NCBI GenBank assembly: GCA_016214005.1
Contig: JACRPK010000006.1
Coordinates: 17,719-81,718 of the forward strand
Source of the DNA: Candidatus Wolfebacteria bacterium
Lineage (GTDB): Bacteria > Patescibacteriota > Minisyncoccia > UBA6257 > UBA9933
DNA length: 64,000 bases
Direction of reading: 5' to 3'
Positions 3,425-25,127 of this stretch are shown here, piece by piece. The stretch's first letter is position 1. Every line of letters begins with the position of its first letter. The translations under genes were made by a program, and so were the position numbers. The notes beneath the pieces are model-generated. The model had not been told where the DNA came from. It did no database searches and saw only the letters and a program-made list of their open reading frames with translations.

Positions 3425-3436
3425 GTTTGTGCTTTA

Positions 3437-4616: not shown

Positions 4617-4662
4617 TAGGGCAGAGAGCAAATACTCTCCGCCCTATATTTTATTTTGAGGT
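4617..4662 (+). terminator. rho-independent terminator (tagggcagagag…ctctccgcccta + T-run)
   Basis: Inverted repeat followed by TATTTTATTTT. Confidence 0.55.
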
Positions 4663-4697
4663 TTCATTTTAAGTAAGTTTAAATTATAATTTTTAAT

Positions 4698-5975: not shown

Positions 5976-5986
5976 CTTTGATCCGA

Positions 5987-6070
5987 ATCCCCGCATAAAA
6001 CCTCGCTAATTTCGCCATTGACTTTTTCATTTTCCCAAGTATAATATAGTGTAGAAACTTTGAAAAATAA
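5987..6070 (+). promoter_or_regulatory. promoter cassette copy D (TTGACT 6018-6023, 16 nt, TATAAT 6040-6045)
   Basis: Repeat family member. Followed by type-II leader ACGCATCCCTGCCTGCCGGCAGGCAGGTTTGTGAATGTGTTAATAAGAAAACCGG. Confidence 0.6.
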
Positions 6071-6077
6071 CGCATCC

Positions 6078-6097
6078 CTGCCTGCCGGCAGGCAGGT
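6078..6097. repeat. 20-bp perfect palindrome CCTGCCTGCCGGCAGGCAGG (copy 1 of 4)
   Basis: Identical palindrome at 11152..11171, 41542..41561 and 55922-ish (core CCTGCCGGCAGG). Confidence 0.6.
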
Positions 6098-6136
6098 TTG
6101 TGAATGTGTTAATAAGAAAACCGGACTTCATATTTT

Positions 6137-6154
6137 GCTATCACTAATGATAGC
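6137..6154. promoter_or_regulatory. 18-bp palindromic operator-like site GCTATCACTAATGATAGC (copy 1 of 5)
   Basis: Same palindrome (GCTATCAC yRr GTGATAGC) at 25155, 42593, 43143 and 43461. Confidence 0.45.
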
Positions 6155-6192
6155 GTGGTCAAAAATAAGTAAAGAAAGAGAGGAATTGAATT

Positions 6193-6576
6193 ATGGGTGG
6201 ATATTCTGAAAAAGATGCGGCAAAAGATACTAATTCTAGTATGAAAGAAACAAAAGATGCTTGGCATACTGCAAGAGATGATGCTGCTGAAGAAGGCGAT
6301 TGGGGTGTGCCAAAAGACAGACATGGTGAAGGATGTTTTATAGCGACTGCGGCTTATGGAAGCTATTTCGAGCCTCACGTAAAAATTCTCAGGGATTTTA
6401 GAGATATTTTTCTTGTGGAGAGTATTTTGGGAAGATTATTCATAAAAATTTATTATTGTATCAGTCCGTTTATTTCCGGTATTATTGAAAAAAGTGAAAT
6501 TTTAAAGAAAATTATGCGAATAATTCTTTCGCCGATAGCATTGTTGATTGAACATATATTTATAAAGCGCTTTTAA
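6193..6576 (+). CDS. 127-aa protein: N-terminal hydrophilic DW-motif peptide region fused to a C-terminal GCFIATAAYGS…LRDFRD…hydrophobic module
   Basis: N-terminal 47 aa are homologous to the 4399 peptide. C-terminus carries CFIATAAYGS followed by LRDFRD and a hydrophobic stretch. I recall this as a conserved C-terminal module of secreted/anchored proteins but cannot name the family with certainty. Confidence 0.5.
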   Translation: MGGYSEKDAAKDTNSSMKETKDAWHTARDDAAEEGDWGVPKDRHGEGCFIATAAYGSYFEPHVKILRDFRDIFLVESILGRLFIKIYYCISPFISGIIEKSEILKKIMRIILSPIALLIEHIFIKRF

Positions 6577-6610
6577 GCGCTTTTTATTTTGGCAAAATTA
6601 TTCATAATAT

Positions 6611-6895
6611 GTGATAATAATAAATATGGGAAAAGAAAATCAAAAAAATCCTGCCTGCGTTATTTTGTGGCAAGATGCGGCATATTCATATGAGAAAGAA
6701 TTTCCGAAAGAATTTCCATTGCCACAATTAACAGCTGGTTTTATTATTTCCGCTAATGATGAAGACGATTTTATAAATATTGCCATGAATGTTGAATATG
6801 ATGAAAAAACCGGTAAATTATATCCGCTCGATGGATTTTTAATACCAAAAAAATCGAAAATTGAATTCAGGAATATGGGATTTTTTAATGAATAA
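6611..6895 (+). CDS. hypothetical protein, 94 aa
   Basis: ORF with ATG start. No recognisable motif. Confidence 0.35.
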   Translation: MIIINMGKENQKNPACVILWQDAAYSYEKEFPKEFPLPQLTAGFIISANDEDDFINIAMNVEYDEKTGKLYPLDGFLIPKKSKIEFRNMGFFNE

Positions 6896-6900
6896 AATTT

Positions 6901-7161
6901 ATGGATAAAAAGAGAATTAAAGTTTATTGGGCAGACGCTGTATTTTATAAAAAGAGTAAAAATATTGGCGATGGTCTGACTAAAATGATAACTATTGGGG
7001 AATTATTCATTGAAAATGAAAAATTTATTGTGATAAAATATCCAAAATCAATTAAAGAAAATAAGCCATTATTATTTCAATTATTTAAGAGATTCTTATC
7101 AAAAAAACCCACTTACTTATTTATTCCCCGCGGAATGATAAGAAACATTATTTTATATTAA
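6901..7161 (+). CDS. hypothetical protein, 86 aa
   Basis: ORF with ATG start. No recognisable motif. Confidence 0.35.
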   Translation: MDKKRIKVYWADAVFYKKSKNIGDGLTKMITIGELFIENEKFIVIKYPKSIKENKPLLFQLFKRFLSKKPTYLFIPRGMIRNIILY

Positions 7162-7164
7162 TAT

Positions 7165-7275
7165 ATCCCCGCATAAAACCTCGCTAATTCCCCCCCCATT
7201 AACTTTTTTGTTTTCGTGAGTATAATACAGTGTAGAAACCTTGAAAAACACCAGTTCTAAGGTTAGAAACTGGTT
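7165..7275 (+). promoter_or_regulatory. promoter cassette copy E (TTAACT 7199-7204, 16 nt, TATAAT 7221-7226) plus hairpin leader
   Basis: Repeat family member. Confidence 0.6.
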
Positions 7276-7310
7276 AAAAAAAGAGAGAAAAGAAAGAGAG
7301 GATAAGGAAA

Positions 7311-8444
7311 ATGGTTGAATCGGCTATTGTTACATCACCGCTTAAAACAATGGTTCCAATCATTAAGGTGGTGGGCGATTTTTGCAATTTAAATTGCAAA
7401 TATTGTTTTTATAATGCCAAGGACCAGATTATCCGCCATGTGATGAGCAATGATTTGCTTGAAAAATTTTTTAGCGAGTATCTAGATCTTTTTTCTGGCA
7501 ATCTTTTTATTATTTGGCATGGAGGAGAGCCTCTTCTCGCAGGACTTCGATATTTCGAACATATTGTTGAACTTGAAAAGAAATATCTCAAAAAAGGCCA
7601 AACGATTAAAAACGCCATTTAAACAAATGCTACATTGGTAAACGATGAGTGGGCGCAATTTTTTAAAGCGCATAATTTTAAAGTTGGCGTAAGTTTAGAC
7701 GGCGGACAAGAAAGTCATAATCTATTTCGCAAAAATCATGGAGGGAAAGGTTCTTTTGATCATGCTATGCGAGGAATTAAAATACTCCGTCGTTATGGAA
7801 TAGAGCCTGGGATTATTCAAACTTTGACTCGCGCCAATATTTCGCGTGTTCAAGAAGATTTCAATTTTTTTGTGAATGTTCTTGGAATCCATGCGTGGGG
7901 AACAAATTTTTATCTTGATCTTGATAATATTAATCAGCTCATGCTGGATCAGAATCTTACCAATTGTCAGCTTGCGGATTTTTTGAGAAAACAAATTGAT
8001 CTTTGGCTTGTTCGAAATGATAGAACTTTACGCATTAGAGAAATAGAAAATTTTATTTCTGGCGTGTTTAATAAAAAAACGCCAAGTTGCGCTTTTAGCG
8101 GATCTTGCAGTAAATATTTTTGTCTTGAATACGATGGCAAAATATATCCATGTGATAGATCTTCTGGCAAGTCAGATCTGTTATTGGGAGATTTCTCCAG
8201 ACAATCGTTGCAAGATGTTTTTAATAGCGTGAGCAAATTAAATTATGATAAGCAGATTAATAATTTGCCATCTGAATGTTCAATTTGTGAATGGCTGAAG
8301 TTTTGCAATAATGGATGCGTTATGAACAGGGAAGGCGGGATTGGCGGTAAATATTATTATTGCGAGATGCGAAAAGAGATTTTTGCTTATCTTAAAGAGA
8401 AAGTTGGCGAATATAATCGATCACTTATAACACAAACCGCCTGA
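7311..8444 (+). CDS. radical SAM / SPASM-domain peptide-modifying enzyme (anSME-like), interrupted by an in-frame TAA at 7620-7622
   Basis: CxxxCxxC (GDFCNLNCKYCFY) at residues 25-32, followed by GGEPLL. C-terminal Cys cluster CSKYFCLEYDGKIYPCD…CSICEWLKFCNNGCV matches SPASM. Both halves are in the same frame. The TAA falls where the conserved Q of the (I/V)QTNGTLL motif is expected (here AI*TNATLVNDEW). Confidence 0.75.
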
Positions 8445-9672: not shown

Positions 9673-9760
9673 GAATCCCCCGCATAAAACCTCGCTAATT
9701 CCCCCCATTAACTTTTTTATTTTCGTGAGTATAATCTAGGTAGAAACTTTGAAAAATAAC
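9673..9760 (+). promoter_or_regulatory. promoter cassette copy F (TTAACT 9708-9713, 16 nt, TATAAT 9730-9735)
   Basis: Repeat family member. The leader is a diverged type-II version. Confidence 0.6.
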
Positions 9761-11044: not shown

Positions 11045-11087
11045 TTATATATACTAGCAAAATTTTGTGGGTTAGGAAACAAGCGCT

Positions 11088-11171
11088 GTCCATTGACTTT
11101 TTCATTTTCCCGAGTATAATATAGGGTAGAAACTTTGAAAAATAACGCATCCCTGCCTGCCGGCAGGCAGG
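11088..11171 (+). promoter_or_regulatory. promoter cassette copy G (TTGACT 11093-11098, 16 nt, TATAAT 11115-11120) with type-II leader containing the 20-bp palindrome
   Basis: Repeat family member. Confidence 0.6.
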
Positions 11172-13179: not shown

Positions 13180-13716
13180 ATGAATAAAAATTTAGTAAAA
13201 ATTATAAATGAAATGGCCGCCATTGATCAAAAGATGAGAAGAAATGCGATGAAAACTGGAATTTGGGATAAGATGGTTGATAGAAAAAATATATTAAAAA
13301 TAAAAAAAATTATTAAAAAATTTGGTTGGCCGACGATTGGTCTTGTTGGTAAAAAAGCTAGTTGGAATGCGTGGTTAATTATTCAACACGCCGATCATGA
13401 TATTCGGTTTCAAAAAACTATTTTAAGTCTGCTCGAAAAAATTTATAATAAAAATTCATTAGAAATAGATAAAAATAATATAGCGTTTTTAAAAGATAGA
13501 ATTTTAATAAATGAAGGGAAGCATCAAGTATTTGGGACACAATTTTATACAAATAAAAAAGGAATTTTTGGACCGAGGTCGATAAAAGATATTAAAAATC
13601 TTGATAAAAAAAGAAAAGAATATAATCTGCCGCCATTTAGTGAATATAAAAAATTAATAAATAATTACAAAGTTGTTCCGATTAAAAAAAATAATAAAAA
13701 TAATCACCGCCATTGA
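13180..13716 (+). CDS. hypothetical protein, 178 aa, very AT-rich
   Basis: ORF only. Its 3' end abuts promoter cassette H. Confidence 0.35.
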   Translation: MNKNLVKIINEMAAIDQKMRRNAMKTGIWDKMVDRKNILKIKKIIKKFGWPTIGLVGKKASWNAWLIIQHADHDIRFQKTILSLLEKIYNKNSLEIDKNNIAFLKDRILINEGKHQVFGTQFYTNKKGIFGPRSIKDIKNLDKKRKEYNLPPFSEYKKLINNYKVVPIKKNNKNNHRH

Positions 13717-13788
13717 CTTTTTTATTTTCCCGAGTATAATATAAAATAGAAACTTTGAAAAATACCAGTTCTAAGGTTAGAAACTGGT
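13705..13788 (+). promoter_or_regulatory. promoter cassette copy H (TTGACT 13713-13718, 16 nt, TATAAT 13735-13740) plus hairpin leader
   Basis: Repeat family member. Confidence 0.6.
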
Positions 13789-13824
13789 AAAAAAAAGAAA
13801 GAAAAAGAAAGAGAGGATAAGGAA

Positions 13825-15134
13825 ATGAAAAAGGAAATGCAGTTGAAATTGCCTTGGTTCCCGATCTTAGATATCTTGCTGGTTATTTTGTTGGGTGTGG
13901 TTTTGTTTGGTTGCGGAAGCAAAAAGGACAACAACAATAACAACAACAATAACAACGTTGTTGTCCAAAAGCCCACAGTCATTTTAACCGCCTCCGAGAC
14001 AAGCATCTGGAGAGGAAAGAAAATAACTCTTAGCTGGGAAGCTAAGAACGCCAATAGCTGCAAAGCTGTGATGTTAATCCCACCGATACCACCACCTACA
14101 GCATCACTTGCTATGGGGAGGATGGCAATTCAGCAGACGATGCCAAAAGCATCAGTGTTGATCTCTGGAAACTGCCGACTAAGTGGCATGGGGGGAATAT
14201 TAATGTTCGCGTCGCTAGCTCTGCCAAAACCAGCGATGGTATTTGGTTCGGCGAATGGTATGCTCCCAATGTCGTCAAATTCAACCTTGCCGGCAAAGTT
14301 CAATGTTCCATAGCCAAAGGTTATTATGTAGAAACTATCGCTTCCTATAGCGACAAGATCTACGCTCTTTGGCATGATGGTGACAGCGCTAGCAGTCCAG
14401 GCCACATTTCCATTTTTGACAACAACTGCAAAGAGTTGCAAGTCATTGAACCGCCGACGGGATATGTCTTTGGCAGGCTTCTGGGTGGGGGAACAATGGT
14501 TGTTGATCAAAACGGCATTGTTGTCCTTGCTTCCAATAACCCCTCAGAAGAGCTGTTTCACCTTGATTTAAATGGAAATTTCATTGGACAGCCCTTTTCG
14601 ATTACAGGCAGTACAGCTGTAATGACATTTGGTGTGACTGTTAGCAATGGAATTTCTTATACAATCGGGTTGGATACCGTAAATGGCCTCACTACAGCAG
14701 TTATTGTCAGCCATACCCTTGACAGCGCTGGCAATAATTGGGTGAATAATTCTTGGCGCTCTACTGCTTTAACAGGAGAAGCGTATACCCAAGATCTTTT
14801 CTATGCTGTCGCAGTCGGCCAAGACGGAATATACGTAGGCGGAGCAGTGACTGTTACTTATCCCAATGGCAGCGGGGATTGGACTTATCTTCTCGTCAAA
14901 TACGATTTCTTGGGAAATCGGCTTTGGCTCGTAGAAGACCGAAAGAAGAAAACGATCAACGGCCTTGCTGTTGACAGCAATGGCTATCTTTACACCAATG
15001 TTGGTGAAAAGATAAACCCTGCCGATGGTTCCGTTGTCTGGAGCATTGGAAAAACCTGCGGAGAGTCTGTTATCGTAGACAATGGAATTTTCTATGCCCG
15101 CCCTTTTTTATTTTTTGCGGAATTTGACAAATGA
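13825..15134 (+). CDS. lipoprotein with Ig-like domain and beta-propeller-like repeats; reading frame broken near 14060 (frame switches by 1 nt)
   Basis: Lipobox LFGC|GS and an Asn run. Frame A up to ~14060 (…ITLSWEAKNANSC) continues in frame C as DVNPTDTTTYSITCYGEDG…, a typical Ig-like strand pattern, through to 15134. The ORF track splits this into 13825..14313 and 14436..15134. Confidence 0.55.
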
Positions 15135-15199
15135 ATTTAACTTGTTATGCTAAAATCAGCATTTAGCTCTTTTAAAATAAAATAAGGAGAATATCGGCA

Positions 15200-16399
15200 A
15201 TGTCGACAATTATATGGCGAAATGTTGGAGAATATACTCATTTTTTAAATTGTGTGAATGGGCACATTGTTTCTTTCAAAGTAGATAGCGCGGAAGCAAA
15301 GAAAATTATAAATAACCCCAATCATTATGAATTTGATTGCGAAGCGGAAAAAGTTTTTAGGACAACAGGCAATCAATATAATTCTAGATTATGCCGCGGA
15401 AATTTGATTAAACTTGGTTTAGAATTTAAATTTCCGACAATAGTGAATATTGAATTAAGCAGGAGATGCTCATTAAGATGCATCCATTGTTATATTGGAA
15501 ATAAAAATTTAAGTTCATCTGAATTAAGTGTTTTTGAAAAAATGGATGATTGCAATATAGACGGATTCTTAAAAAAACTTAAAGATTTGGGAGTTTTTCT
15601 TGTCGTAATAACTGGAGGAGAGCCGTTTATTAGCAAAAAACTTCAAAATTTTTTGCGGATAGCAACAGAAAAAGGATTTTTGATAGAAATATTCAGTAAT
15701 TTACAAAATTTACCCGATTGGTTTTTGCGTAATAAATATGAGGATTTTAGAATAGGTAGAATACAGACTTCAATTTATTCATCTATATTTAAAATTCACG
15801 ATGAAATAACAAAAAGTGCTGGTTCTTTAAAACGCAATCTTAAAAATCTTAATTTATTAATAAAAAATGGGTATTTTGTTGAAGTAGCTACGCCTTTAAT
15901 GAGAAAAAATATCATTTCATGGGAGAGAACTAAATTTTTCTTTGAAGAAAAGAAAATCTCTCAAAATTTTTCTTGGCCGATAGCCGATGAATATTATGGG
16001 ACAAAAAAGAAAAGCAGTTTAAATATTTTTGGTCAAAGTTTTAGTCATTTTATAGAAAAAAATTTAGATTTTCTTTTAGAAAAAAAGTGTTTTGAATCCG
16101 ACGAATATATCTGCGAAGCGGAGAAAGCTATATTCGCGGTATCTGCGACAGGCGACGTTTTCCCATGTAGTCAGATGCCATTACCAGTTGGAAATATATG
16201 CAATAAAAAAATTAAAGATATTATATATGGGAAAGATATGTCTAAAATTGGCTCATTAAAATGGAAAGATGTTTTAAAAGAAAAAGTTTTTAATTTTTGT
16301 CCTGGCATCAATTATACTGATGCAGGAGATGTTTTAATCAAACCAAAACATATGTTCGGCGCGATAGCAACTCTTAATAATAAAATGGAAAGGAGGTGA
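15200..16399 (+). CDS. radical SAM / SPASM-like enzyme with ~85-aa N-terminal extension (candidate RiPP recognition element), 399 aa
   Basis: CxxxCxxC (RRCSLRCIHCYIG) at residues ~89-96, GGEPF, and C-terminal Cys residues (CEAEKAIFAVSATGDVFPCSQMP). The extension before the core is typical of RiPP maturases. Confidence 0.7.
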   Translation: MSTIIWRNVGEYTHFLNCVNGHIVSFKVDSAEAKKIINNPNHYEFDCEAEKVFRTTGNQYNSRLCRGNLIKLGLEFKFPTIVNIELSRRCSLRCIHCYIGNKNLSSSELSVFEKMDDCNIDGFLKKLKDLGVFLVVITGGEPFISKKLQNFLRIATEKGFLIEIFSNLQNLPDWFLRNKYEDFRIGRIQTSIYSSIFKIHDEITKSAGSLKRNLKNLNLLIKNGYFVEVATPLMRKNIISWERTKFFFEEKKISQNFSWPIADEYYGTKKKSSLNIFGQSFSHFIEKNLDFLLEKKCFESDEYICEAEKAIFAVSATGDVFPCSQMPLPVGNICNKKIKDIIYGKDMSKIGSLKWKDVLKEKVFNFCPGINYTDAGDVLIKPKHMFGAIATLNNKMERR

Positions 16400-16405
16400 A
16401 TATTG

Positions 16406-16498
16406 ATGAAAAAATCAATAAAAACCGCGTGGTCATCAAGTAGGAGCAGTAAATCATCCACTTGCCCGGGATGTTCCTCGCGCAGTTCTACCCATTAA
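16406..16498 (+). CDS. small Ser/Cys-rich peptide, 30 aa (MKKSIKTAWSSSRSSKSSTCPGCSSRSSTH); candidate precursor
   Basis: AAAGGAGGTGA overlaps the rSAM stop and the ATG is 7 nt after. 12 Ser, 2 Thr, 2 Cys in 30 aa. Terminator hairpin gggagaatgatttaaacaattctccc follows. Confidence 0.4.
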   Translation: MKKSIKTAWSSSRSSKSSTCPGCSSRSSTH

Positions 16499-16551
16499 AA
16501 ATGGGATTTGGGAGAATGATTTAAACAATTCTCCCTTTTTTTATTTCATTA

Positions 16552-17508
16552 ATGAATGTTATCATTAAAATAATGAATTATTTGATAACAGAAAAGATTA
16601 AAAAAGAATATAATTTAAAGAATCCGGTTTTTCTAAAAAAATTTGAAACGCGAGGGCAGCGGCGCGTTTTTTTAATCATTGATAATAAAAATAAATATGT
16701 TATTAAAATTATTCCGAATAAAAAAGAATTAATTGCGAAATTGGAATTTATATCCAAGATCAAAAATAAAATAATCAATTTTCCTAGAATTATTGATACA
16801 AAATCAAATAAAAAATATTTTTTTCAGTCCGGTAATTTTTTTTTCTTATCGGAATTTATTGATGAAAAAGAAAATATGCCGTCACTGAATTTTTTTTCAA
16901 AATTAGGCTATGCTGTTGGAGAATTTCATAAAATTGAAACAGAAAATAGCAAAATTTTAAATTTAAATATTGGGGAAAAAATTAAAAAATTAAAAACATT
17001 ATTTTCAAAAAAGAATATAGATATTAAAATCAAAAATCAAATAATCAATTTTCTTGATTCATTCCCGCCAATATCTGGCGCGACAATTGGTCCAGTTCAT
17101 GGGGATATAAGCTATTTTAATGTTTTGGGCAAAGAAAAACTTTTTTTAATTGATTTTGATGATATATCGCGCGGTCCGATTGTTTATGATCTTGGGCAGA
17201 TGGTCGCTTTTATGTTTAATCTTATCCCTTTTGATTTTCTTAAGTTTGAGATGAAAATAAAACGTATATCGCAGCCCGTTTTTTTAATGAGCGGATTTAA
17301 AATTTTTTTAAAAAATTATTCTCGAAAAATAAAATTATCTCGCCATGATATAGAAATTTTACCAAAAATGGCTATGTTGGTGTGCTTGGAAAATGTTTAT
17401 TTAGAGTCAATTGACGGAATATTTAAATGGAATTTTAAGAGATTCAAAAAAATAGAAAAAGAACAAGATTTAATAAAACAATTATCTTTAAAATATTTTT
17501 TGAATTAA
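16552..17508 (+). CDS. aminoglycoside-phosphotransferase/protein-kinase-like fold protein, 318 aa
   Basis: Brenner-type motif VHGDISYFNV and LIDFDD (DxD) in the expected order. Confidence 0.5.
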   Translation: MNVIIKIMNYLITEKIKKEYNLKNPVFLKKFETRGQRRVFLIIDNKNKYVIKIIPNKKELIAKLEFISKIKNKIINFPRIIDTKSNKKYFFQSGNFFFLSEFIDEKENMPSLNFFSKLGYAVGEFHKIETENSKILNLNIGEKIKKLKTLFSKKNIDIKIKNQIINFLDSFPPISGATIGPVHGDISYFNVLGKEKLFLIDFDDISRGPIVYDLGQMVAFMFNLIPFDFLKFEMKIKRISQPVFLMSGFKIFLKNYSRKIKLSRHDIEILPKMAMLVCLENVYLESIDGIFKWNFKRFKKIEKEQDLIKQLSLKYFLN

Positions 17509-17535
17509 ATATATTTTGCCCGCCCTTTTTTAATG

Positions 17536-17610
17536 ATTTGGTTGCCTATTAAAATTTTATCTTATAAAATTTAATAATAGGCGCGACCAAATCATTAACC
17601 CGCCAAAATT
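17536..17610. repeat. long imperfect palindrome (gatttggttgcctatta…taataggcgcgaccaaatc)
   Basis: ~75-nt inverted repeat immediately after the 17484..17535 repeat. Confidence 0.45.
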
Positions 17611-17623
17611 TTTGAATTAATTT

Positions 17624-17893
17624 ATGTTTCATTTTGTCTACATATTATTTAGTCATAAAGATATGGGAATATATATTGGTTTTACAGATAATTTACCAAG
17701 AAGAATTAAGGAACATCATCAGGGAAATGTAAAATCAACTGAAAATCGCAGACCAATTGATTTAATATATTTTGAGGGTTATAAAAATAAAAAAGATGCT
17801 TTGCAAAGAGAAATGTATTTAAAAACAGGCTGGGGTAGAAATTATCTAAAGAAGATTATTAAAAATTATTTTCTAAATAATTCAAAAATTTAG
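17624..17893 (+). CDS. GIY-YIG nuclease superfamily protein (UPF0213/YhbQ-like), 89 aa
   Basis: GIYIGFTDNLPRRIKEHH…RRPIDLIYFE… matches the small stand-alone GIY-YIG family. Confidence 0.7.
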   Translation: MFHFVYILFSHKDMGIYIGFTDNLPRRIKEHHQGNVKSTENRRPIDLIYFEGYKNKKDALQREMYLKTGWGRNYLKKIIKNYFLNNSKI

Positions 17894-17994
17894 GCGGGCA
17901 CTCAATTTTATAGTTTCGCTTCGCTCAAATAAACTTGGCGAGTTATCCACAGCTTGCCTCTTGCAACTAATTTTACATATCTTATAATTAAAAA

Positions 17995-18738
17995 ATGATC
18001 AACAAACTAAAAATAAAACTTAACAGCATCAAACAATCAAACGTTTTTCAATTTGTGTTTCTGGCTCTTTTGAGCGTTTCTTTGACTTATTTTTTGGTGT
18101 ACGCGCAAGTTGGAGCTGTTAGTACATTAGATAGTAATTTAAAAACAGGCGATATCATAGCCAGTGGCAAAGCCACGATTGGTGGCGATTTAAGCGCGGC
18201 GACTTTAAGCGCGGCGAATGGTAGTTTCATAGTAAGCTCAATTGGCGACATCACTGGCCATGCGCTTAATATTAACAACAAATTGATAGTTGACTCAAAT
18301 GGTGTCTCGATTTCCGGTTTCAGTATGAAATATCTTTATTTGCCTGTTGCTTTTTCTAATCCGATTAATTTATCGAATGTTTCGGAGCCGGCTTATTCTC
18401 AAAAAACGACCGGCGGTGCTTATGAAGCTAGGCAAACTAGCGCAAACCGTTCACCAATAGGTAATTTTTATAAGATTGATAATCTTGCAACTTTATACAC
18501 CAATCCTTCTGGAACTGGAACTATTTGTGATGCGATAAATAGCGGAAATTGGGGAACACGGGGCAATAATTTAAAATTTATTCTTTCTGATAGAGATCTT
18601 GGCTCTACCGCAAGAATTGTTAATTATTTTGGTTATGCAGGAAGTGATGGTTCTAATGCTTGCACTCAAAAAACAAATGATTACGCCTATTTTGAATTTG
18701 TTGATTATCAAAGATTGGGACAAATTTATATTAAGTAA
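17995..18738 (+). CDS. hypothetical secreted/membrane-anchored protein, 247 aa
   Basis: N-terminal TM/signal (VFQFVFLALLSVSLTYFLVYA). Terminator caaggcaatcagagccttg follows. Confidence 0.45.
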   Translation: MINKLKIKLNSIKQSNVFQFVFLALLSVSLTYFLVYAQVGAVSTLDSNLKTGDIIASGKATIGGDLSAATLSAANGSFIVSSIGDITGHALNINNKLIVDSNGVSISGFSMKYLYLPVAFSNPINLSNVSEPAYSQKTTGGAYEARQTSANRSPIGNFYKIDNLATLYTNPSGTGTICDAINSGNWGTRGNNLKFILSDRDLGSTARIVNYFGYAGSDGSNACTQKTNDYAYFEFVDYQRLGQIYIK

Positions 18739-18786
18739 AAACAAGGCAATCAGAGCCTTGTTTTTTTGTTTGTCCCTTGTTTAACT

Positions 18787-18848
18787 CCTGTTTGCCTCCT
18801 GTTTGACTCCTGTTTGACTTCCGGGTTTTGGAGGTGATAAGATAAATT
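18787..18848 (+). promoter_or_regulatory. TA-module leader: tandem CCTGTTTG(A/C)C repeats, TTGACT, GGAGGTGATAAGATAAATTT (copy 1 of 3; also 19386..19437 and 19996..20063)
   Basis: The same leader precedes three toxin-antitoxin modules. Direct repeats x2-4. Confidence 0.5.
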
Positions 18849-18849
18849 T

Positions 18850-19110
18850 ATGGAAAAATTAAACACAAACACATCTTTTTATTCAATAATTATTGAAGCC
18901 TGCGAAGAGGGCGGATATTTTGCTTATTGTCCTATATTGCAAGGCTGTCATGCCGAAGGAGAGACTTATGGAGAAACAATAGATAATATTCGCGATGTTA
19001 TTAAGACTCATCTTGAATTGCGAAAAAAACATAAAGAATTGACTTCTTTTATTAAAGTTAAAAACAGATCAGATATAAATATTCAAATTCCTGTTCCAGT
19101 GGGAAATTAA
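18850..19110 (+). CDS. hicB: HicB-family antitoxin, 86 aa
   Basis: YSIIIEACEEGGYFAYCPILQGCHAEGETYGETIDNIRDVI is characteristic of HicB/UPF0150. Confidence 0.7.
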   Translation: MEKLNTNTSFYSIIIEACEEGGYFAYCPILQGCHAEGETYGETIDNIRDVIKTHLELRKKHKELTSFIKVKNRSDINIQIPVPVGN

Positions 19111-19116
19111 TTTTTT

Positions 19117-19359
19117 ATGGGCTTGAAATTTCCTGTTGTTAATTATCGCGATACAACAAAAATAGCCAAGAAACTTGGTTTTTATTTTTATCGTCAGGCT
19201 AAGGGCAGCCATGAAATTTGGAGAAGAGATATAGATGGCAGACAGACAACTATACCAAATCATGGCAGTAAAATTATTAAGCGCCGAACTTTAAAAGCAA
19301 TTTTTGAAGATTTTCAAATTTCGGCAGAGGAATTTTTTAAATTAAAAAAACATAAATAA
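19117..19359 (+). CDS. hicA: HicA-family toxin (mRNA interferase), 80 aa
   Basis: KGSHEIWRR…TTIPNHGSKIIKRRTLKAIFED matches HicA/YcfA. Confidence 0.7.
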   Translation: MGLKFPVVNYRDTTKIAKKLGFYFYRQAKGSHEIWRRDIDGRQTTIPNHGSKIIKRRTLKAIFEDFQISAEEFFKLKKHK

Positions 19360-19427
19360 CGGCATTGGGTGTTCTTTTATTTGATTCCTGTTTGACTTCC
19401 GGGTTTTGGAGGTGATAAGATAAATTT

Positions 19428-19655
19428 ATGAATACCATTACTATTCCAAAAAATTTAACCAGAGGGGCGGAGCTTGTTATAATACCCCGCGATGAGTATG
19501 AGGAATATTTGCAGTTGCGTAAAATTATTTCTGTTGTAAAAATGACTTCGGCTCAAAAACGCGATCTAGAACAGGCGAGGAAAGATTATAAACAAGAGAA
19601 ATATATTACTCTTGAGCAGCTTGAATATGAACTGGGTATTACACATAAGAAATAA
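19428..19655 (+). CDS. putative antitoxin (AbrB/MazE- or RHH-like), 75 aa
   Basis: Small ORF upstream of, and overlapping, a RelE/ParE-like gene. Preceded by the shared TA leader. Confidence 0.5.
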   Translation: MNTITIPKNLTRGAELVIIPRDEYEEYLQLRKIISVVKMTSAQKRDLEQARKDYKQEKYITLEQLEYELGITHKK

Positions 19656-19881
19656 GACAAAAAAAGAATTTTGCCGTTTTCCCATGAAAGATCGATGCTA
19701 TATTGCCGAGGCGCTTCGTGAAATAAAAGAGAACCCTTTCTTTGGCGATATTATAAAATTGGATGTAGAGAATTTTTGGCGTCGTCGCATTGGCGCTTAT
19801 CGGATTTTTTACGAAATAATTACCAGCAAAAAAATTGTTTATGTTTTTAGAATTGAACGGCGAAATTCAAAAACTTATTAG
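19612..19881 (+). CDS. RelE/ParE-family toxin (start uncertain; ATG at 19684 also possible)
   Basis: C-terminal YRIFYEIITSKKIVYVFRIERRN matches the RelE/ParE signature. Confidence 0.55.
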   Translation: MSSLNMNWVLHIRNKTKKEFCRFPMKDRCYIAEALREIKENPFFGDIIKLDVENFWRRRIGAYRIFYEIITSKKIVYVFRIERRNSKTY

Positions 19882-19888
19882 TAATATA

Positions 19889-19992
19889 ATGGAAAAATTA
19901 AACACAAACACATCTTTTTATTCAATAATTATTGAAGCCTGCGAAGAGGCGCGAAAAAAACATAAATAACGGCATTGGGTGTTCTTTTATTT
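19889..19992 (+). pseudogene. deleted hicBA remnant: first 60 nt of hicB fused to the 3' end/downstream flank of hicA
   Basis: 19889-19950 is identical to 18850-18911. 19955-19992 matches 19337-19380. The conceptual ORF is only 26 aa. Confidence 0.6.
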
Positions 19993-20063
19993 AACTCCTG
20001 TTTGCCTCCTGTTTGACTCCTGTTTGACTTCCGGGTTTTGGAGGTGATATATTAAAATAAATT

Positions 20064-20312
20064 ATGAACATTATTAAGCCAAAATTATCTTATGGTCGAC
20101 GGCTTCCTCTCCTAGTAGAAAAAGGGGAAGATAATTTTTATGTGGTTGAATGTCCACTTTTTGAAGGTTGTTACAGCCAGGGCAAAACCCTTGACGAGGC
20201 TTTGCATAATATTCGCGAGGTTATAGGGATAATTCTTGAAGAGAAGATTGCCAGAGAAATTCTAAAAAATTATAATCCCGAAGAAATAAGCCTTCATACT
20301 ATTGCGGTATAA
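20064..20312 (+). CDS. hicB: HicB-family antitoxin, 82 aa
   Basis: FYVVECPLFEGCYSQGKTLDEALHNIREVI. Confidence 0.7.
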   Translation: MNIIKPKLSYGRRLPLLVEKGEDNFYVVECPLFEGCYSQGKTLDEALHNIREVIGIILEEKIAREILKNYNPEEISLHTIAV

Positions 20313-20314
20313 AT

Positions 20315-20533
20315 ATGATAAAATTACCGATTATTTCTGGCCGTCAACTTATTAAACTTTTATCTAAATTAGGTTATCGCGAGGTTCGCCAGCGCGGCAG
20401 CCATATTCGTTTATCTTGTTTAAATAGAAAATCAGTAACTGTGCCGAATTACAAAGCTATAGATAGATCTTTGCTTAGAAAAATATTGAGAGATTCTGAA
20501 TTGAGCATAGATGAATTTTTAAATCTTTTTTAA
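20315..20533 (+). CDS. hicA: HicA-family toxin, 72 aa
   Basis: RGSHIRL…VTVPNYKAIDRSLLRKILRD. Terminator follows at 20575-20616. Confidence 0.7.
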   Translation: MIKLPIISGRQLIKLLSKLGYREVRQRGSHIRLSCLNRKSVTVPNYKAIDRSLLRKILRDSELSIDEFLNLF

Positions 20534-20732
20534 ATAAAAAATTAAAAATAAATTTTATAGATTAAATATTTTTTACAAAACAAGGCTCAAAAATAAAACA
20601 TTGAGCCTTGTTTTTATTAATTGACTTTGCGATAAAATTATGATATAAATTACGCAGTATGGTTTGGAAATGGTTTCCAAACTTTTTGACAAGTGAATAA
20701 GGGTGAATCAATAGACAGGAAGGGGGAAATCT

Positions 20733-20993
20733 ATGGATATTATAAAGAATGTAGAAAAAAAGCAGTGCGGTTTTTGTAAGGGTTCTGGCAACTGTTCTAA
20801 ATGCCATAATGGTATTTGTTCAAGATGTAAAGGTAAGGGTGAACTTAATACTACTTATTTAAGGGATGGTTTGTTGTTTTCGCATAGAGTTGAAAATCCC
20901 AATTATTGTCCTCTTTGCAGGGGTAATCATTTGTGCGTGTCGTGTAATGGTACACGACGTTGTAGCGCTTGTAACGGAAGCGGTTGGGTATAA
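20733..20993 (+). CDS. small Cys-rich protein with four CxxCxGxG-type repeats (DnaJ-like zinc-finger motif), 86 aa
   Basis: CGFCKGSGNC, CSRCKGKGEL, CPLCRGNHLC, CSACNGSGWV. RBS GGAAGGGGGAAA. Confidence 0.5.
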   Translation: MDIIKNVEKKQCGFCKGSGNCSKCHNGICSRCKGKGELNTTYLRDGLLFSHRVENPNYCPLCRGNHLCVSCNGTRRCSACNGSGWV

Positions 20994-21027
20994 TTGATAA
21001 TCAACTTTTGAAAGAAAGAGGTAGATT

Positions 21028-21960
21028 ATGAGTATGGATAAGCTTTTCGGAGGATTGGTTGGGATTCTTGACCCGGAAATTCGCAAATTGGCGGAAAAAA
21101 TGGTTGAGGGCGTTCCTAAAAATAGCTTTTTTCGAAGCGAAAAATTCGAACGCATTCTTGGTATTTTTAAGGGCTGGCTTGAAAGCAAGAGCAAAGGGAA
21201 ATCTCCGGGAATGGCAATGGCAATTGAAAAATTTACGGATTTTCTCAATTTTGTCGGAGTCAGCCTTTCAGTAAAAACTTGTAATGACGCTGGTTCTGGA
21301 AAAAAAGAGAAAAAAGTTGTTGAAATTGCCGACGATTGGATGTCATCGTTTTTTAAAGAGGCGAGCGATCGCATTGCGAAAAGCTCTGATCCAAAAACCG
21401 AATTTGCCAGATTGAAAGAAGAATTTGAACTTCGGTTGCAAATTCTTGAACTCGTAAAAAAAGCTCAAGAAGAAGCGCAGTCAAAGCAAGAGGTTTTTGA
21501 ACCAGCTGAACCAAGACCTGAAAAAAGCTGGGATGAACTCTTTGTTTTTTGTAATGAGAAATTCAATGAGTTCTACCGAAGATCTGACAAGGCTACGGCT
21601 GAGGCATTGTGGAATTTCTATGATTTAATATCTCCCAAAAAGCCAAAGATAAAAAGAATTTGGCATCTGGGGGATTGGTTTAATCTTTTTAAGCAATGGT
21701 GGTTAAAGCGTAAAAAGCCGCCTATTGTTGAAAAGGTTGAAGAACCAACTGTTGAAATTCACCATGAAGAAAAGCGGGTTCATGAAGATGGCAAATTTAA
21801 TAATAGCCATCAATTGTGGAAACCAAGAGGCTTTTTTAAAATTCCCGATGCCAATATCTATGGTGATGGGTTTTTTATAAAAAGATATCCTGGCACATTT
21901 TTTCTTCCGGAACATGTGGATCGAGAAGAAGGTCTTGTTGTTATAAAAAAACCTTTTTAA
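21028..21960 (+). CDS. hypothetical protein, 310 aa
   Basis: ORF with RBS AAGAGG. Charged, coiled-coil-like central region. Confidence 0.45.
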   Translation: MSMDKLFGGLVGILDPEIRKLAEKMVEGVPKNSFFRSEKFERILGIFKGWLESKSKGKSPGMAMAIEKFTDFLNFVGVSLSVKTCNDAGSGKKEKKVVEIADDWMSSFFKEASDRIAKSSDPKTEFARLKEEFELRLQILELVKKAQEEAQSKQEVFEPAEPRPEKSWDELFVFCNEKFNEFYRRSDKATAEALWNFYDLISPKKPKIKRIWHLGDWFNLFKQWWLKRKKPPIVEKVEEPTVEIHHEEKRVHEDGKFNNSHQLWKPRGFFKIPDANIYGDGFFIKRYPGTFFLPEHVDREEGLVVIKKPF

Positions 21961-21982
21961 AAGAAAGAAAAGAGAGGATAGA

Positions 21983-22888
21983 ATGGAAAGTTTACAGGCT
22001 TTTTTTGCAATTTTTTCGGAGATTTGGCAACTTGGGAACAGGTTTTGCCGGTGGGCGATTGCGATAATCGCTTTCTGGCCGATACTCATAATGGCTTCGG
22101 CGTTTTACGGAACGTCCGGAATCATTGCTATTGTTTCCATGGTGCCGATAGTGGCAATTGTTCTTTTGACAGCTGTTCATGCAGAAACCTATAAAAAGGT
22201 TGAACGCGAAGAAAATGGGCAGAATGTCGTTCGGCAGGTGCCGAATGTGAATATTTGGCCATTGGGATTTTTCGCTATCGCGGTTTATTCGGAAAAAGTC
22301 CGCGAGGCGATTAAAACGCTCACTGGAATTGCGGCTCTTGAGCTGTGTCTTGGCATTTATTTCGCGCTTGTTCCAGTTCAAAACGATCGCGATCTAATAC
22401 CGGTAGTGGTGCTTATTGTCATCGCTATGATCTTTATTTGGATCAGCGCGGAAGGAAAGACCCGAAGCCATTCGCTTATTTTTTTGGCTGTCGTTCTTAA
22501 AATTATTACGGTCATCTTTTTTATGGGTGGTCGCGATGAAATAAGAATAGATATGCCAAAAACTGCATTTGCTTCTGCGCCTTCTTTTTGGAATACTCCT
22601 CTTTGCGCTAATGGAAAAATTAGCATAGACATAAAAGAGGAGAACACGAAAGAAATTCAGATTAATTTCCGAAATGATTGTATTTCGGAAGTTAAACTTC
22701 CTCCGAATTTCAAGTATATACTTGACCCCGACAAAGATGTTCGGATTAAGTTCCTTGATGGTTCGGAGTATGTTGATGGGCCGGGGAAGATGGCCTGGCA
22801 AGGATTGCATAAAGGATTTTTTAAGATTCGCGGTGTTTCTGAATCCGGGATCTTAAAAATATCCTTGGAATCCCTGCAAAACAGTTAA
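21983..22888 (+). CDS. hypothetical integral membrane protein, 301 aa
   Basis: Several hydrophobic helices. RBS AAAGAGAGGATAG. Confidence 0.45.
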   Translation: MESLQAFFAIFSEIWQLGNRFCRWAIAIIAFWPILIMASAFYGTSGIIAIVSMVPIVAIVLLTAVHAETYKKVEREENGQNVVRQVPNVNIWPLGFFAIAVYSEKVREAIKTLTGIAALELCLGIYFALVPVQNDRDLIPVVVLIVIAMIFIWISAEGKTRSHSLIFLAVVLKIITVIFFMGGRDEIRIDMPKTAFASAPSFWNTPLCANGKISIDIKEENTKEIQINFRNDCISEVKLPPNFKYILDPDKDVRIKFLDGSEYVDGPGKMAWQGLHKGFFKIRGVSESGILKISLESLQNS

Positions 22889-22986
22889 ATATTCCGGATA
22901 TGGGGTTTTCCCCGTATCCGGATTTTTTATTCAGATTTTTTTATTTTCGCTTGACACTATTTATTAAATATCAGAAAATTATATTA

Positions 22987-23352
22987 ATGAATAAATTTAT
23001 TTTAACTATTATAGCGGCTTTATTTATTGTTGGCGTTAATAATGTTTTTGCTGTTAGCGGTGGAATCACTTCCGGTAGCGGGCTTACCAACCCTCTTGGA
23101 GCAGGAGCCACTATCTGGACTCTTCTTGACGGCTTAATTGGCTTTCTTATCAAAGTCGGATCTTTTATCTTGCCGATTATGGTTTTATATGGCGGTTATT
23201 TGATTTTGTCGGCTGGCGATGATCCGAAAAAAGTTGAAAGCGGGAGAGAAGTGATTCTCTGGGCTGTTGTCGGATTTATTATTATCTTGTGTTCATGGGG
23301 AGTTATTTATATAATTGGAGATGTGTTGGGAATCAGTATTCCGACGCAATAA
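22987..23352 (+). CDS. VirB2/TrbC-like small 2-TM secreted protein (paralog 1 of 5)
   Basis: Signal peptide, then two hydrophobic helices separated by a charged loop (SAGDDPKKVESGRE). Pattern shared with 23769, 24135, 25324 and 25960. Confidence 0.4.
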   Translation: MNKFILTIIAALFIVGVNNVFAVSGGITSGSGLTNPLGAGATIWTLLDGLIGFLIKVGSFILPIMVLYGGYLILSAGDDPKKVESGREVILWAVVGFIIILCSWGVIYIIGDVLGISIPTQ

Positions 23353-23356
23353 AATT

Positions 23357-23767
23357 ATGAAAAAACAAAAAATTAAAAAATCAAAAATGACATTGGATAA
23401 ATTGGCGTTGATAATAAAGCAAGAGATTGACACCAAGGTGTCCAAAGACGACTTAAAAAATGAATTACAAAGATTTGCCACCAAAGACGACTTAAAAAAT
23501 GAATTACAAAGATTTGTCACCAAAGATGATCTTAAAAACTTTAAAATAGAATTTAAGTCTGAAGTTGCCGATGAAATTAAATCAACGATTAAAGAAGAAC
23601 TCACTGATAATATAAATAAATTATTTACCAAAGCTGATATTATCATTTCTAAATTGGAAAAAAAAGAACAGGAAGATTTGATGCACACACAAGCTCATAG
23701 AAGAATCAATGACACTTTGGAAATTCACGATAAAAAAATAAAAAATTTAGAAATAAAAATAAATTAA
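23357..23767 (+). CDS. hypothetical coiled-coil protein with internal 14-aa tandem repeat (KDDLKNELQRFxTK)
   Basis: 42-bp DNA direct repeat x2.5 at ~23440-23545. Lys/Glu-rich. Confidence 0.45.
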   Translation: MKKQKIKKSKMTLDKLALIIKQEIDTKVSKDDLKNELQRFATKDDLKNELQRFVTKDDLKNFKIEFKSEVADEIKSTIKEELTDNINKLFTKADIIISKLEKKEQEDLMHTQAHRRINDTLEIHDKKIKNLEIKIN

Positions 23768-23768
23768 A

Positions 23769-24110
23769 ATGAATTTAATTAAAAAATCTGCGTTAATTTT
23801 ATCAATTTTATTTTTTAGTTTTTTAATTTTGAATTTTGCTTTTGCTCAGGCGGGTTCTTCTCCTGTTAAAAGCGCGAGCGATGTTTATAATATTTTAGGG
23901 AAAATCGTGAGCTGGATGTATACGATATTTTTTATTGTTTCAGTGTTTTTTGTTTTATTGGCGGCTTTTAAATTTTTAACGGCCGAAGACGATCCTGAAA
24001 AAATAAAAGGCGCCACAAAATCAATTATGTGGGCGGCGGTGGCGGTTGTTGTGGCTTTGCTTTCCGTTGGTTTCGGAAAAATTATTGAAAGTTTTATTAC
24101 AACACCATAA
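23769..24110 (+). CDS. VirB2/TrbC-like small 2-TM secreted protein (paralog 2)
   Basis: Signal peptide AFA|QA, TM1, loop TAEDDPEKIKGATKS, TM2. Confidence 0.4.
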   Translation: MNLIKKSALILSILFFSFLILNFAFAQAGSSPVKSASDVYNILGKIVSWMYTIFFIVSVFFVLLAAFKFLTAEDDPEKIKGATKSIMWAAVAVVVALLSVGFGKIIESFITTP

Positions 24111-24134
24111 TTTTTTATAATTAATAATTTTATT

Positions 24135-24518
24135 ATGTTAAATATTGCGCAGGCGGCATCTCAAATTCCTGATATTTCTCAATACGGCGGACCAAAAGCG
24201 GTTGGCCCAACGAATGTTGGCGGAATTGTTGATATTCTTGTAAAAGTGATGCAGTGGACTTATTCAATATTTTTTGTTGTGGCGGTTCTTTTTATTATTT
24301 TGGCGGCTTATGAATATCTTACTGGCGCTGAAGATCCGGAAAGAATTCGCGAAGCCCATAAAAGGATTATTTGGGCAGGAGTGGCGATAGCTGTGGCAAT
24401 TCTTGCTTTAAGCTTTAATTTGCTTGTGCAGAATTTTTTGGGCGCAAGCGGGGGAGGCGGCGGATCTAGTGGTGGGGGAGCTGGCGGAACAAATTATTCT
24501 GGCGGAGGGACTCCATAA
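24135..24518 (+). CDS. VirB2/TrbC-like small 2-TM protein (paralog 3) with Gly-rich C-terminal tail
   Basis: Same core (…YLTGAEDPERIREAHKRIIWAGVA…) plus a GGGGGSSGGGAGG tail. Confidence 0.4.
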   Translation: MLNIAQAASQIPDISQYGGPKAVGPTNVGGIVDILVKVMQWTYSIFFVVAVLFIILAAYEYLTGAEDPERIREAHKRIIWAGVAIAVAILALSFNLLVQNFLGASGGGGGSSGGGAGGTNYSGGGTP

Positions 24519-24584
24519 TCAGAAAAGTATTTAATCAAAAAAGAAAACCGCGAGTTGTTATTGAAAACAAACCCGCGGTGTTTT

Positions 24585-25127
24585 TTATTTGGAGGAGGCC
24601 GACAAGAAAGTCGCCCAATGCACTTTCTTCTCCTTAAAGTAGTGGATTGCGCCGGTAACGTGGAAAATCCAGCGAGCTTTTTCTTGTCCCTTAATGTTAA
24701 AAACAGCCGTGTATTCTCCGGGAAGGAGATAGTCTTCTTGCTCTTTTTCCGAATCAAGGGTGTAGCTTGTGGAAAGGCCAGTACTGTTGTTGATTATAAC
24801 AGCGGTAACGGTTTCTTTCGTTGAATTGACCACAATTCCTTTGAATCCCATTGATATGCCATTTTCTGTCTTTGTCATTGTGGGCTGAGCATATAGTTTG
24901 GCCATGGCCGTGTCAAAGCCATCTTTTTTTTGGCGAAGACTCTCTTTTTCGTTTTGAATTTTCGCCATTTCCTCGGCATCCGAAAAACCGCTATGATCGC
25001 CGCTGTTGTATTGCTCTTCACTGCCGTAGCGAGCTTTACCGCCGACATAAGCAATCCCCAGGGCGCCGGCGCAAGCGTTGAGGCTAACGACCGCAAGTAT
25101 CAAAAACAGAAATGCAAATCTTCTCAT
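24585..25127 (-). CDS. hypothetical lipoprotein, 180 aa
   Basis: Signal + lipobox LNAC|AG. Higher GC than the surroundings. Operator palindrome 28 bp upstream of its start. Confidence 0.5.
   Translation of the reverse strand: MRRFAFLFLILAVVSLNACAGALGIAYVGGKARYGSEEQYNSGDHSGFSDAEEMAKIQNEKESLRQKKDGFDTAMAKLYAQPTMTKTENGISMGFKGIVVNSTKETVTAVIINNSTGLSTSYTLDSEKEQEDYLLPGEYTAVFNIKGQEKARWIFHVTGAIHYFKEKKVHWATFLSASSK

Follow-up and report, generated by a model that had tools for sequence, protein, structure and literature searches.

How several toxin-antitoxin (TA) operons of different families could come to lie one behind another under nearly the same upstream sequence, with the stump of a further module left among them, is the question raised by a 1.85-kb chromosomal TA island of Candidatus Wolfebacteria bacterium. 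The island is located in the 64,000-nucleotide (nt) stretch analysed here (GenBank assembly GCA_016214005.1, contig JACRPK010000006.1, positions 17,719 to 81,718 of the forward strand), hereafter the window, whose source is a metagenome-assembled genome (MAG); positions are those of the window unless another locus is named. On the plus strand at 18766-20620, the island contains a hicB-hicA pair (module 1), a small antitoxin gene followed by a RelE/ParE toxin gene (module 2), and a second, diverged hicB-hicA pair (module 3), with the stump between modules 2 and 3. We infer that the three operons were brought under a copied promoter by a history of duplication, capture and deletion, and we consider this explanation as a whole to be likely.

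An initial annotation of this DNA had already described a tandem array of three TA modules with these gene identities, and the open reading frames (ORFs) and Pfam matches at the respective positions (Table 1) agree with it. By their predicted products the modules are three co-oriented type II TA operons, and the antitoxin gene comes first in all of them.

A nearly identical block precedes each module. Its 26-mer TTGACTTCCGGGTTTTGGAGGTGATA occurs exactly at 18814, 19392 and 20024 and nowhere else in the window (none expected from shuffled windows), the core that is identical in front of all three modules is 30 nt long, and the block includes the sequence CTGTTTGACTTCCGGGTTTTGGAGGTGATA. Leaders 1 and 3 are identical at 62 of 63 nt and differ in the -10 region, and leaders 1 and 2 are identical at 44 of 45 nt, up to the ATG. 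The previous description of the same leader before each module is therefore correct for the near-identical block in its three copies, but not for the end of the module-3 leader, which departs after GGAGGTGATA and reads TATTAAAATAAATT instead of AGATAAATTT.

Based on a promoter scan (-35 TTGACT / 18 nt / TGnTAAGAT or TGnTATATT), the predicted nature of the shared block is that of a sigma-70-type promoter, and neither that of a 5' untranslated region (UTR) nor that of a ribosome-binding site. From the end of the -10 box to the ATG of the antitoxin gene there are 6, 6 and 10 nt in modules 1, 2 and 3, respectively, which puts the predicted start of transcription at the ATG or a few nt away from it; the TA mRNAs are therefore probably leaderless or nearly so. 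Among 13 hicB loci from species-representative genomes of other Patescibacteria, the best promoter match ended 6-8 nt before the ATG in 10, and a comparable match at a distance of 5-10 nt was obtained for 4.7% of random positions in the window. The orthologous hicB promoters align with the window block at the -35 box, the T-rich spacer, the TG and the -10 box, but not at GGAGG. We had also considered this GGAGG as a ribosome-binding site and rejected it: it lies inside the -35/-10 spacer, its distance to the ATG is 15 nt in modules 1 and 2 and 19 nt in module 3 while the -35/-10 geometry is constant, and it is unconserved in the orthologous promoters. A structured leader RNA or riboswitch was discarded as well (leader fold z = 0.0; no Rfam match at the gathering threshold).

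According to the literature on Mycobacterium tuberculosis, the TA transcripts of this organism are predominantly leaderless (Cortes et al. 2013, PMC3898074; PMC8485053). The -10 boxes ending 6-10 nt before the antitoxin ATG in the present array resemble that situation, although the starts were mapped there and are predicted here from promoter geometry and conservation. Across the window, the -10 box of a promoter-like match ended 5-10 nt before the first ATG in 18 of the 76 ORFs of at least 100 amino acids (aa), compared with the 4.7% obtained for random positions, and this Wolfebacteria genome may thus contain many leaderless genes.

The promoters of the three modules are 98-100% identical, whereas the genes behind them are either unrelated or, between modules 1 and 3, only 55% (hicB) and 52% (hicA) identical in their coding nucleotides. 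This disparity in sequence identity shows that promoter copies have spread recently within the array. The idea that the leader was native to hicBA-1, which came from the alignment of hicB-1 orthologue promoters, was withdrawn because, in other genomes, the promoters of hicB-3-type and other TA genes are equally near the consensus. A 21-mer from the leader had no match in genome_contigs, metagenome_contigs or viral_contigs. Re-use of one promoter sequence is a habit of this genome that extends beyond the TA array: elsewhere in the window, eight copies of an 82-120-nt promoter/5' UTR unit were observed (CCATTGACTTTTTTnTTTTCnnGAGTATAATA...GTAGAAACTTTGAAAAATAA, then an A/G-rich stretch to AGAGAGGA..ATG), which precede an apparent peptide-modification cluster comprising peptidase M16, C39-like peptidase, GNAT, radical SAM/SPASM and MvdD-type ATP-grasp genes.

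The upstream part of leaders 1 and 3 consists of 11-nt tandem repeats (Table 1), and leader 2, which is shorter by exactly 22 nt or two units, has approximately two of them. The repeat unit CTGTTTGACTC includes the -35 hexamer, and the distance to the -10 box is right for the last copy only. Tandem copies are absent from the closest hicB-1 orthologue loci, L098 (HicB 94% identical) and L011 (88%), which have a single CTGT(A)TTTGACTT, and the antitoxin 2 orthologue of locus L009 (81% identical) is preceded by unrelated DNA without such repeats. A search of viral_contigs with the double repeat gave no matches. The varying copy number, the decay of the units toward the 5' end and the lack of tandem copies in the closest orthologues lead us to interpret the repeats as an amplification of the -35 region that is specific to this genome and presumably arose by slippage.

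The array had earlier been said to have an iteron leader, a term that does not suit it, since the 11-nt unit overlaps the -35 box, no replication gene is nearby and iteron-like features were not found. Iterons are direct repeats of approximately 17-22 bp next to a rep gene or to origin features; the size of the unit, the TA and accessory neighbours, and the chromosomal setting with 16S rRNA and RNase P RNA genes led us to reject a plasmid-type iteron or replication origin. In a Saccharibacteria locus (L027), we noticed an 11-nt repeat, TTGCGCGATTA, in 2.9 copies at 702-734 and 1397-1429, before two adjacent small-gene modules, one of which is hicBA.

Another explanation for the identity of the block is selection rather than recent copying. 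The repeats and the core would then form a common operator, at which one DNA-binding protein (antitoxin 2, a TA complex or a factor whose gene is located elsewhere) co-regulates the three promoters. Such an operator would be compatible with the promoter function of the block. The 11-nt period puts the repeats on one face of the helix, the HicB proteins have no DNA-binding domains and would need another regulator, homologues of antitoxin 2 weakly match MazE/AbrB-type DNA-binding antitoxins, and the repeats of L027 also stand before two adjacent modules. On the other hand, the number of copies differs among the leaders (4.8, ~2 and 3.6), the units become degenerate in the 5' direction, and neither the promoters of the closest hicB-1 orthologues nor the DNA upstream of the antitoxin 2 orthologue in L009 has the repeats. 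Moreover, the near-identity reaches non-consensus bases of the spacer and the non-coding tail, for which recent copying is the better explanation. A common operator is possible, but we are inclined to doubt it.

The second line of evidence for the proposed history is the stump. Its first part, 19889-19949, matches 18850-18910 at 61/61 nt, and after the filler CGCG, 19954-20004 matches 19344-19394 at 49/51 nt, i.e., the last 16 nt of hicA-1 plus the spacer. These two alignments bear out the earlier suggestion that the remnant of a further hicBA-1-type module is present here. The stump ORF (19889-19969) codes for 26 aa, MEKLNTNTSFYSIIIEACEEARKKHK, in which the two ends are fused in frame (...EACEE-A-RKKHK-stop). 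A start of hicB-1 joined to the end of hicA-1 and a 26-aa stub had also been reported before, and both were found, but the copied part of hicB-1 is 61 nt long and not 60. Inside the module, one junction follows nt 61 of hicB and the other precedes the hicA stop by 16 nt. Junctions in this region are located at 19881/19882, 19949/19954 and 19992/19993, and ...TTATTAGTAATATAATGGAAAAA... and ...GAAGAGGCGCGAAAAAAACAT... are junction sequences of the stump. The right internal junction falls at a 13-nt repeat, AAAAAAACATAAA, which is shared, in the same codon phase, by hicB-1 (19023) and the end of hicA-1 (19344); around this repeat in the stump, the left flank (GCG) is of the hicB type and the right flank (TAACGG) of the hicA type. 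The stump has no leader of its own and begins 7 nt past the relE stop, which implies that leader 2 may be the original promoter of the stump, now driving the antitoxin-relE pair.

With junctions inside hicB and at the end of hicA, the deletion is not what recombination between the repeated leaders, the mechanism favoured in the initial annotation, would produce. The same applies to a fuller version of that idea, in which four independent modules, each with a leader, existed and the third of them (hicBA-1') lost its interior and its leader through such recombination. The stump and the repeated leaders do exist, and in relatives recombination from leader to leader adds or removes whole modules. 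However, such an event would take away the whole leader-to-leader unit without leaving a stump. Here the junctions are within the module (nt 61 of hicB; 16 nt ahead of the hicA stop), and a 4-nt filler is present. In addition, a further deletion is needed for the missing leader of the stump, and one more event for the agreement of leader 2 with leader 1 up to the ATG. We consider the four-module origin to be unlikely.

It is also conceivable that the stump or the order of the modules arose artificially, through a chimeric assembly or through the merging of co-existing strains into one consensus. The window derives from a MAG, and exact repeats of up to 61 nt, the longest within the array, could confuse assemblies built with short k-mers. 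On the contrary, three 25-mers across the junctions are unique in the window, and the junction bases (the CGCG filler and TAATATA) occur nowhere else in the array; thus, a mis-join cannot have created these bases and they must be present in the reads. Ordinary reads of 150 nt also span repeats of 61 nt or less. An artefact of this kind is very unlikely in our opinion.

The history that we prefer would comprise three steps. In the first, the leaders of hicBA-1 and hicBA-3 would have recombined unequally, so that the unit of leader, hicBA-1 and tail was duplicated, and the same event would also have created a hybrid leader with the tail upstream and a -10 box of the module-1 type. Leader 2 has exactly this combination and fits a hybrid of leaders 3 and 1, and the tail with a leader follows both hicA-1 and the stump, as a tandem duplication of the unit predicts. 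In the second step, the antitoxin-relE pair would have been placed directly behind the duplicated promoter, before the ATG of the second hicB-1. In the third, the interior of the displaced hicBA-1 copy would have been deleted in frame, which would have fused 61 nt of hicB to the last codons of hicA.

Several points weigh against this account. The left junction of the stump (GAGG/CGCG/AAAAAAA) has an untemplated filler and is not explained by simple microhomology, and the scheme does not explain the 7 nt that separate the stump's ATG from the relE stop. The order of the events cannot be proved from one sequence, and the module that donated the promoter cannot be named because the promoters of hicB-1-type and hicB-3-type orthologues are both near the consensus of the lineage. 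The searches for relatives found no closely related genome with an intermediate state. Furthermore, the window is a metagenome-assembled sequence, and the leaderless status of the transcripts is a prediction solely from consensus geometry.

Comparison with relatives provides an example of the kind of recombination proposed for the first step. Homologues of HicB-1 and of HicB-3 are usually surrounded by tandem TA arrays, including some with truncated or orphaned members, and the partner modules include Gp49/HTH, MNT/HepT, YafQ, ParE and BrnT. Loci L001 and L002 have an identical HicB and are collinear except for 1039 nt between two 80-nt direct repeats of another shared leader, and this segment holds one Gp49/HTH module. 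At the level of sequence comparison, this is direct evidence that leader repeats mediate the gain or loss of whole modules in this group. Such leader-to-leader recombination explains the earlier duplication of hicBA-1 better than the deletion in the stump.

Two other relatives have repeats or inserts that deserve mention in their own right. In Parcubacteria GW2011_GWA1_40_21 (L019), a hicBA module 84% identical to hicB-1 is flanked by 47-53-nt direct repeats (Table 1). In a groundwater Patescibacteria population (L107, ~1186-1245 and ~1935-1975; L108, 1-66 and ~751-816), several TA promoters contain a GC-rich hairpin-like insert of ~30 nt, e.g., CCTGCCCCGGCGTGCTTGCTCTGCTTCAGGG, downstream of the conserved -35 block TTTGACTTTTAATTTTTG and upstream of the TG-extended -10, where it would part the two promoter elements.

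Different TA modules behind the same repeated block might also be explained by an integron-like or other site-specific cassette array, in which the block is the recombination site, and relatives have other repeats between modules (a 22-nt palindrome ten times in L001; a weak Y1-transposase-like gene in L002 and L003). In integrons, attC sites are imperfect palindromes 3' of the cassettes and an integrase is present. The block in our array is not an imperfect palindrome and has no fold (z = 0.0), its position is 5' of the genes and its sequence reads like that of a promoter, the neighbouring genes that were tested (13180-25127) included no recombinase, and the L001-type palindrome is absent from the window. 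An attC array was thus rejected for want of a significant fold, for the position of the repeats 5' of the genes and for the lack of a recombinase among these neighbours, and a cassette array with the block as its recombination site appears extremely improbable. The locus is similar to TA cassettes in chromosomal integrons and to TA-rich islands in that unrelated modules lie in tandem and in one orientation, with repeats between them, and whole modules are gained or lost. It is different in that it has neither attC-like imperfect palindromes nor, among the neighbours tested, an integrase, and that what is repeated is a promoter, located 5' of each module; in addition, the ends of the insertion or deletion in the relatives lie inside plain direct repeats, consistent with homologous recombination.

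The palindromes of L001, a Hainich groundwater Patescibacteria contig, were observed as 10 copies of the 22-nt TATGGAAGTCAGACTTCCATAA at 2996-7830, between small genes that include TA modules. A gene with a weak Y1-transposase match is found nearby in L002 and L003, which are variants of L001, and the palindromes may represent a REP/RAYT-like system, judging from this arrangement. REP-like palindromes of the L001 type (GGAAGTCNGACTTCC) did not occur in the window beyond chance.

With regard to the modules themselves, both HicA proteins matched the HicA_toxin domain (PF07927) well above its cut-off, and the HicB_lk_antitox domain was matched by HicB-3 above and by HicB-1 slightly below the cut-off (Table 1), at profile positions 1-48 (HicB-1) and 2-54 of 123. 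Homologues of HicB-1, up to 94% identical, bear the name HicB, and HicB-3 has a 100% match named HicB family antitoxin in Candidatus Wolfebacteria. At the protein level, the identity between modules 1 and 3 is 39% for HicB and 35% for HicA. The conserved His of HicA is catalytic, and both HicA proteins have it within GSH (KGSHEIW and RGSHIRL); HicA-1 matches PDB 1whz with the His aligned and GSH opposite the GGH of 1whz. The profile of the HicB-1 family aligned with residues 7-87 of E. coli HicB (6u0i, 148 aa; E = 0.0064), and no C-terminal ribbon-helix-helix or helix-turn-helix DNA-binding domain was found in either HicB of the window, the proteins ending at 82-86 aa. Since both are single-domain proteins without a DNA-binding domain, classical HicB autoregulation is unlikely and, from the predicted proteins, self-repression is not expected here.

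In common with known HicAB systems (E. coli HicAB; single-domain relatives, e.g., Thermus TTHA1913 / TTHA1756), modules 1 and 3 have a HicA domain with the conserved His and the N-terminal domain of HicB, and hicB and hicA are adjacent and translationally coupled. In E. coli the toxin gene comes first, whereas the antitoxin gene is first here, and the 82-86-aa HicB proteins are without the C-terminal DNA-binding domain of the 148-aa E. coli HicB. According to what is known of these families, the HicA proteins (mRNA interferases) and the RelE-like toxin would each be kept inactive by the antitoxin with which they are paired.

The toxin of module 2 exceeds the cut-off of ParE_toxin (Table 1). 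Its gene most likely starts at ATG 19627, as in the orthologue of L009, which is called at 84 aa, and overlaps the antitoxin 2 gene by 29 nt. The same pair of 75 and 84 aa is found in a Liptonbacteria MAG and in a Logan contig. In PDB, only weak matches to archaeal and E. coli RelE were obtained (E = 0.14-0.9); RelE is an RNase and ParE a gyrase poison, and the best, though weak, structure matches of the toxin are RelE proteins. A protein 100% identical to antitoxin 2 comes from a contig of Candidatus Wolfebacteria, as does the match to HicB-3, whereas look-ups by exact sequence found no record of the window's own proteins. Antitoxin 2 had no family match in Pfam or NCBIfam, its profile search against PDB gave nothing below E = 0.19, and its AlphaFold model was poor (predicted template modelling score, pTM, 0.30). 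Two of the 20 homologues of antitoxin 2 matched MazE_antitoxin (best E = 3.4e-5), and its N-terminus may be MazE/AbrB-like. Module 2 resembles the RelBE/ParDE superfamily in its ParE_toxin match above the cut-off, in the overlapping upstream antitoxin gene and in being kept as a pair in other Patescibacteria, but differs in an antitoxin that is outside the Pfam and NCBIfam families and has no PDB relative by profile search.

Genes for 16S rRNA, RNase P RNA and a single tRNA are located in the window, whose GC content is ~35%. The genes flanking the TA island are accessory (radical SAM/SPASM, APH-type kinase, GIY-YIG and type IV secretion system-type pilins), and neither a recombinase nor a replication gene was found among the neighbouring genes tested. 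The island is bordered by two terminator hairpins, of which the right one is the sole convincing terminator within the array; the spacers between the modules showed no structure (fold z = 0.6 and -1.5) and no convincing terminator. Both border hairpins contain the 13-mer GAGCCTTGTTTTT (18753-18765 and 20603-20615) and a complementary arm, with exact copies only there in the window. The shared 13-mer gives the island the appearance of a discrete segment inserted beside or within a terminator, and suggests that it was inserted at, or along with, a duplicated terminator. A search for the empty site by synteny, using the upstream 247-aa protein, found no relatives in metagenome_contigs. Complementarity of the tail (GGGTGTTCTTTTATTT) to the relE coding sequence at 19718-19736 was judged to be compatible with chance.

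Other features were noticed in the window. On the plus strand at 2614-2713, downstream of a copy of the repeated promoter unit and by peptidase and radical-SAM genes, a short ORF codes for a glycine-rich 33-aa peptide, MGGKGGSGGHGGGNAGSGGQNGQGGIRGGGRGR, which may be a precursor peptide in view of its sequence and location. The operator-like palindrome TTGCTATCACTAGTGATAGCAA occurs five times on the plus strand (25145, 42583, 43133, 43268 and 43451), four of the copies being clustered in 42.5-43.5 kb. An element of ~150-220 nt is present in three copies with 91-100% identity (3519-3664, 41530-41747 and 55907-56148), one of them just upstream of the RNase P RNA gene (56246). Tandem duplications were found in coding regions at 49791-49872 and 23442-23519, one a perfect 41-nt duplication and one of 39 nt (97% identical).

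Table 1. Coordinates of the TA island, its regulatory sequences and related repeats (window positions, except for locus L019).
Feature	Position	Strand	Description
Left terminator hairpin	18737-18765	+	Terminator scan; belongs to upstream gene 17995-18738; -13.1 kcal/mol, z = -3.4; left island border
11-nt tandem repeat block 1	18767-18819	+	Unit TGTTTGACTCC, 4.8 copies (Tandem Repeats Finder, TRF); decays toward 5' end
Promoter 1	18814-18843	+	TTGACT, 18-nt spacer with GGAGG, TG-extended -10 TAAGAT; -10 ends 6 nt before hicB-1 ATG
hicB-1	18850-19110	+	86 aa; Pfam HicB_lk_antitox E = 1.1e-5, 26 bits (cut-off 27)
hicA-1	19117-19359	+	80 aa; Pfam HicA_toxin E = 8.7e-17, 61.4 bits (cut-off 27); GSH motif
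39-nt tail	19344-19382	+	Last 16 nt of hicA-1 and 23-nt spacer; exact repeat at 19954-19992
Promoter 2	19392-19421	+	-10 TAAGAT ending 6 nt before ATG; same as promoter 1 through ATG
Antitoxin 2	19428-19655	+	75 aa; ORF, pairing with toxin conserved in L009 and L010
RelE/ParE-superfamily toxin	19627-19881	+	84 aa from ATG 19627; Pfam ParE_toxin (PF05016) E = 3e-6, 28.2 bits (cut-off 23)
hicBA-1 stump	19889-19992	+	hicB-1 5' end 19889-19949, filler CGCG 19950-19953, tail copy 19954-19992
11-nt tandem repeat block 3	19990-20029	+	3.6 copies (TRF); same as 3' units of block 1
Promoter 3	20024-20053	+	Same -35 and spacer, TG-extended -10 TATATT; -10 ends 10 nt before hicB-3 ATG
hicB-3	20064-20312	+	82 aa; Pfam HicB_lk_antitox E = 1.8e-9, 38.3 bits (cut-off 27)
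hicA-3	20315-20533	+	72 aa; Pfam HicA_toxin E = 1.8e-14, 54 bits (cut-off 27)
Right terminator hairpin	20577-20614	+	14-bp perfect stem, then T-run; -18.1 kcal/mol, z = -5.5; right island border
Repeated promoter/5' UTR unit	851-932, 2425-2506, 3680-3761, 5988-6069, 7169-7250, 9678-9759, 11063-11144, 13683-13764	+	
L019 direct repeats	3798-3850, 4602-4651, 7484-7539		Third copy 2.9 kb away

As a whole, the modules add new members to known families, and the array that holds them was rearranged recently; general knowledge of TA systems is unchanged by them. Of modest interest are the promoter that they share, its leaderless geometry and the single-domain form of HicB. A more general possibility is that the typical TA promoter of this lineage, which in the present genome has the phased 11-nt repeat, acts as a portable block of homology, at which homologous recombination would duplicate, delete and swap modules and seat newly acquired promoterless pairs at a leaderless start, in effect a cassette system free of integrase, possibly with one shared repeat-binding regulator. 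We regard this generalization as distinctly improbable.

The locus itself captures, cleanly and in datable form, a moment in the turnover of TA arrays in Patescibacteria, whose genomes are very small. With near-identical promoters before unrelated genes and one half-deleted module, it shows the duplication and reshuffling of TA modules. It further suggests that 5' leaders are missing from the TA transcripts of this lineage and that the short HicB proteins are unable to repress their own promoters, which raises the question of how toxin and antitoxin are balanced in these organisms.

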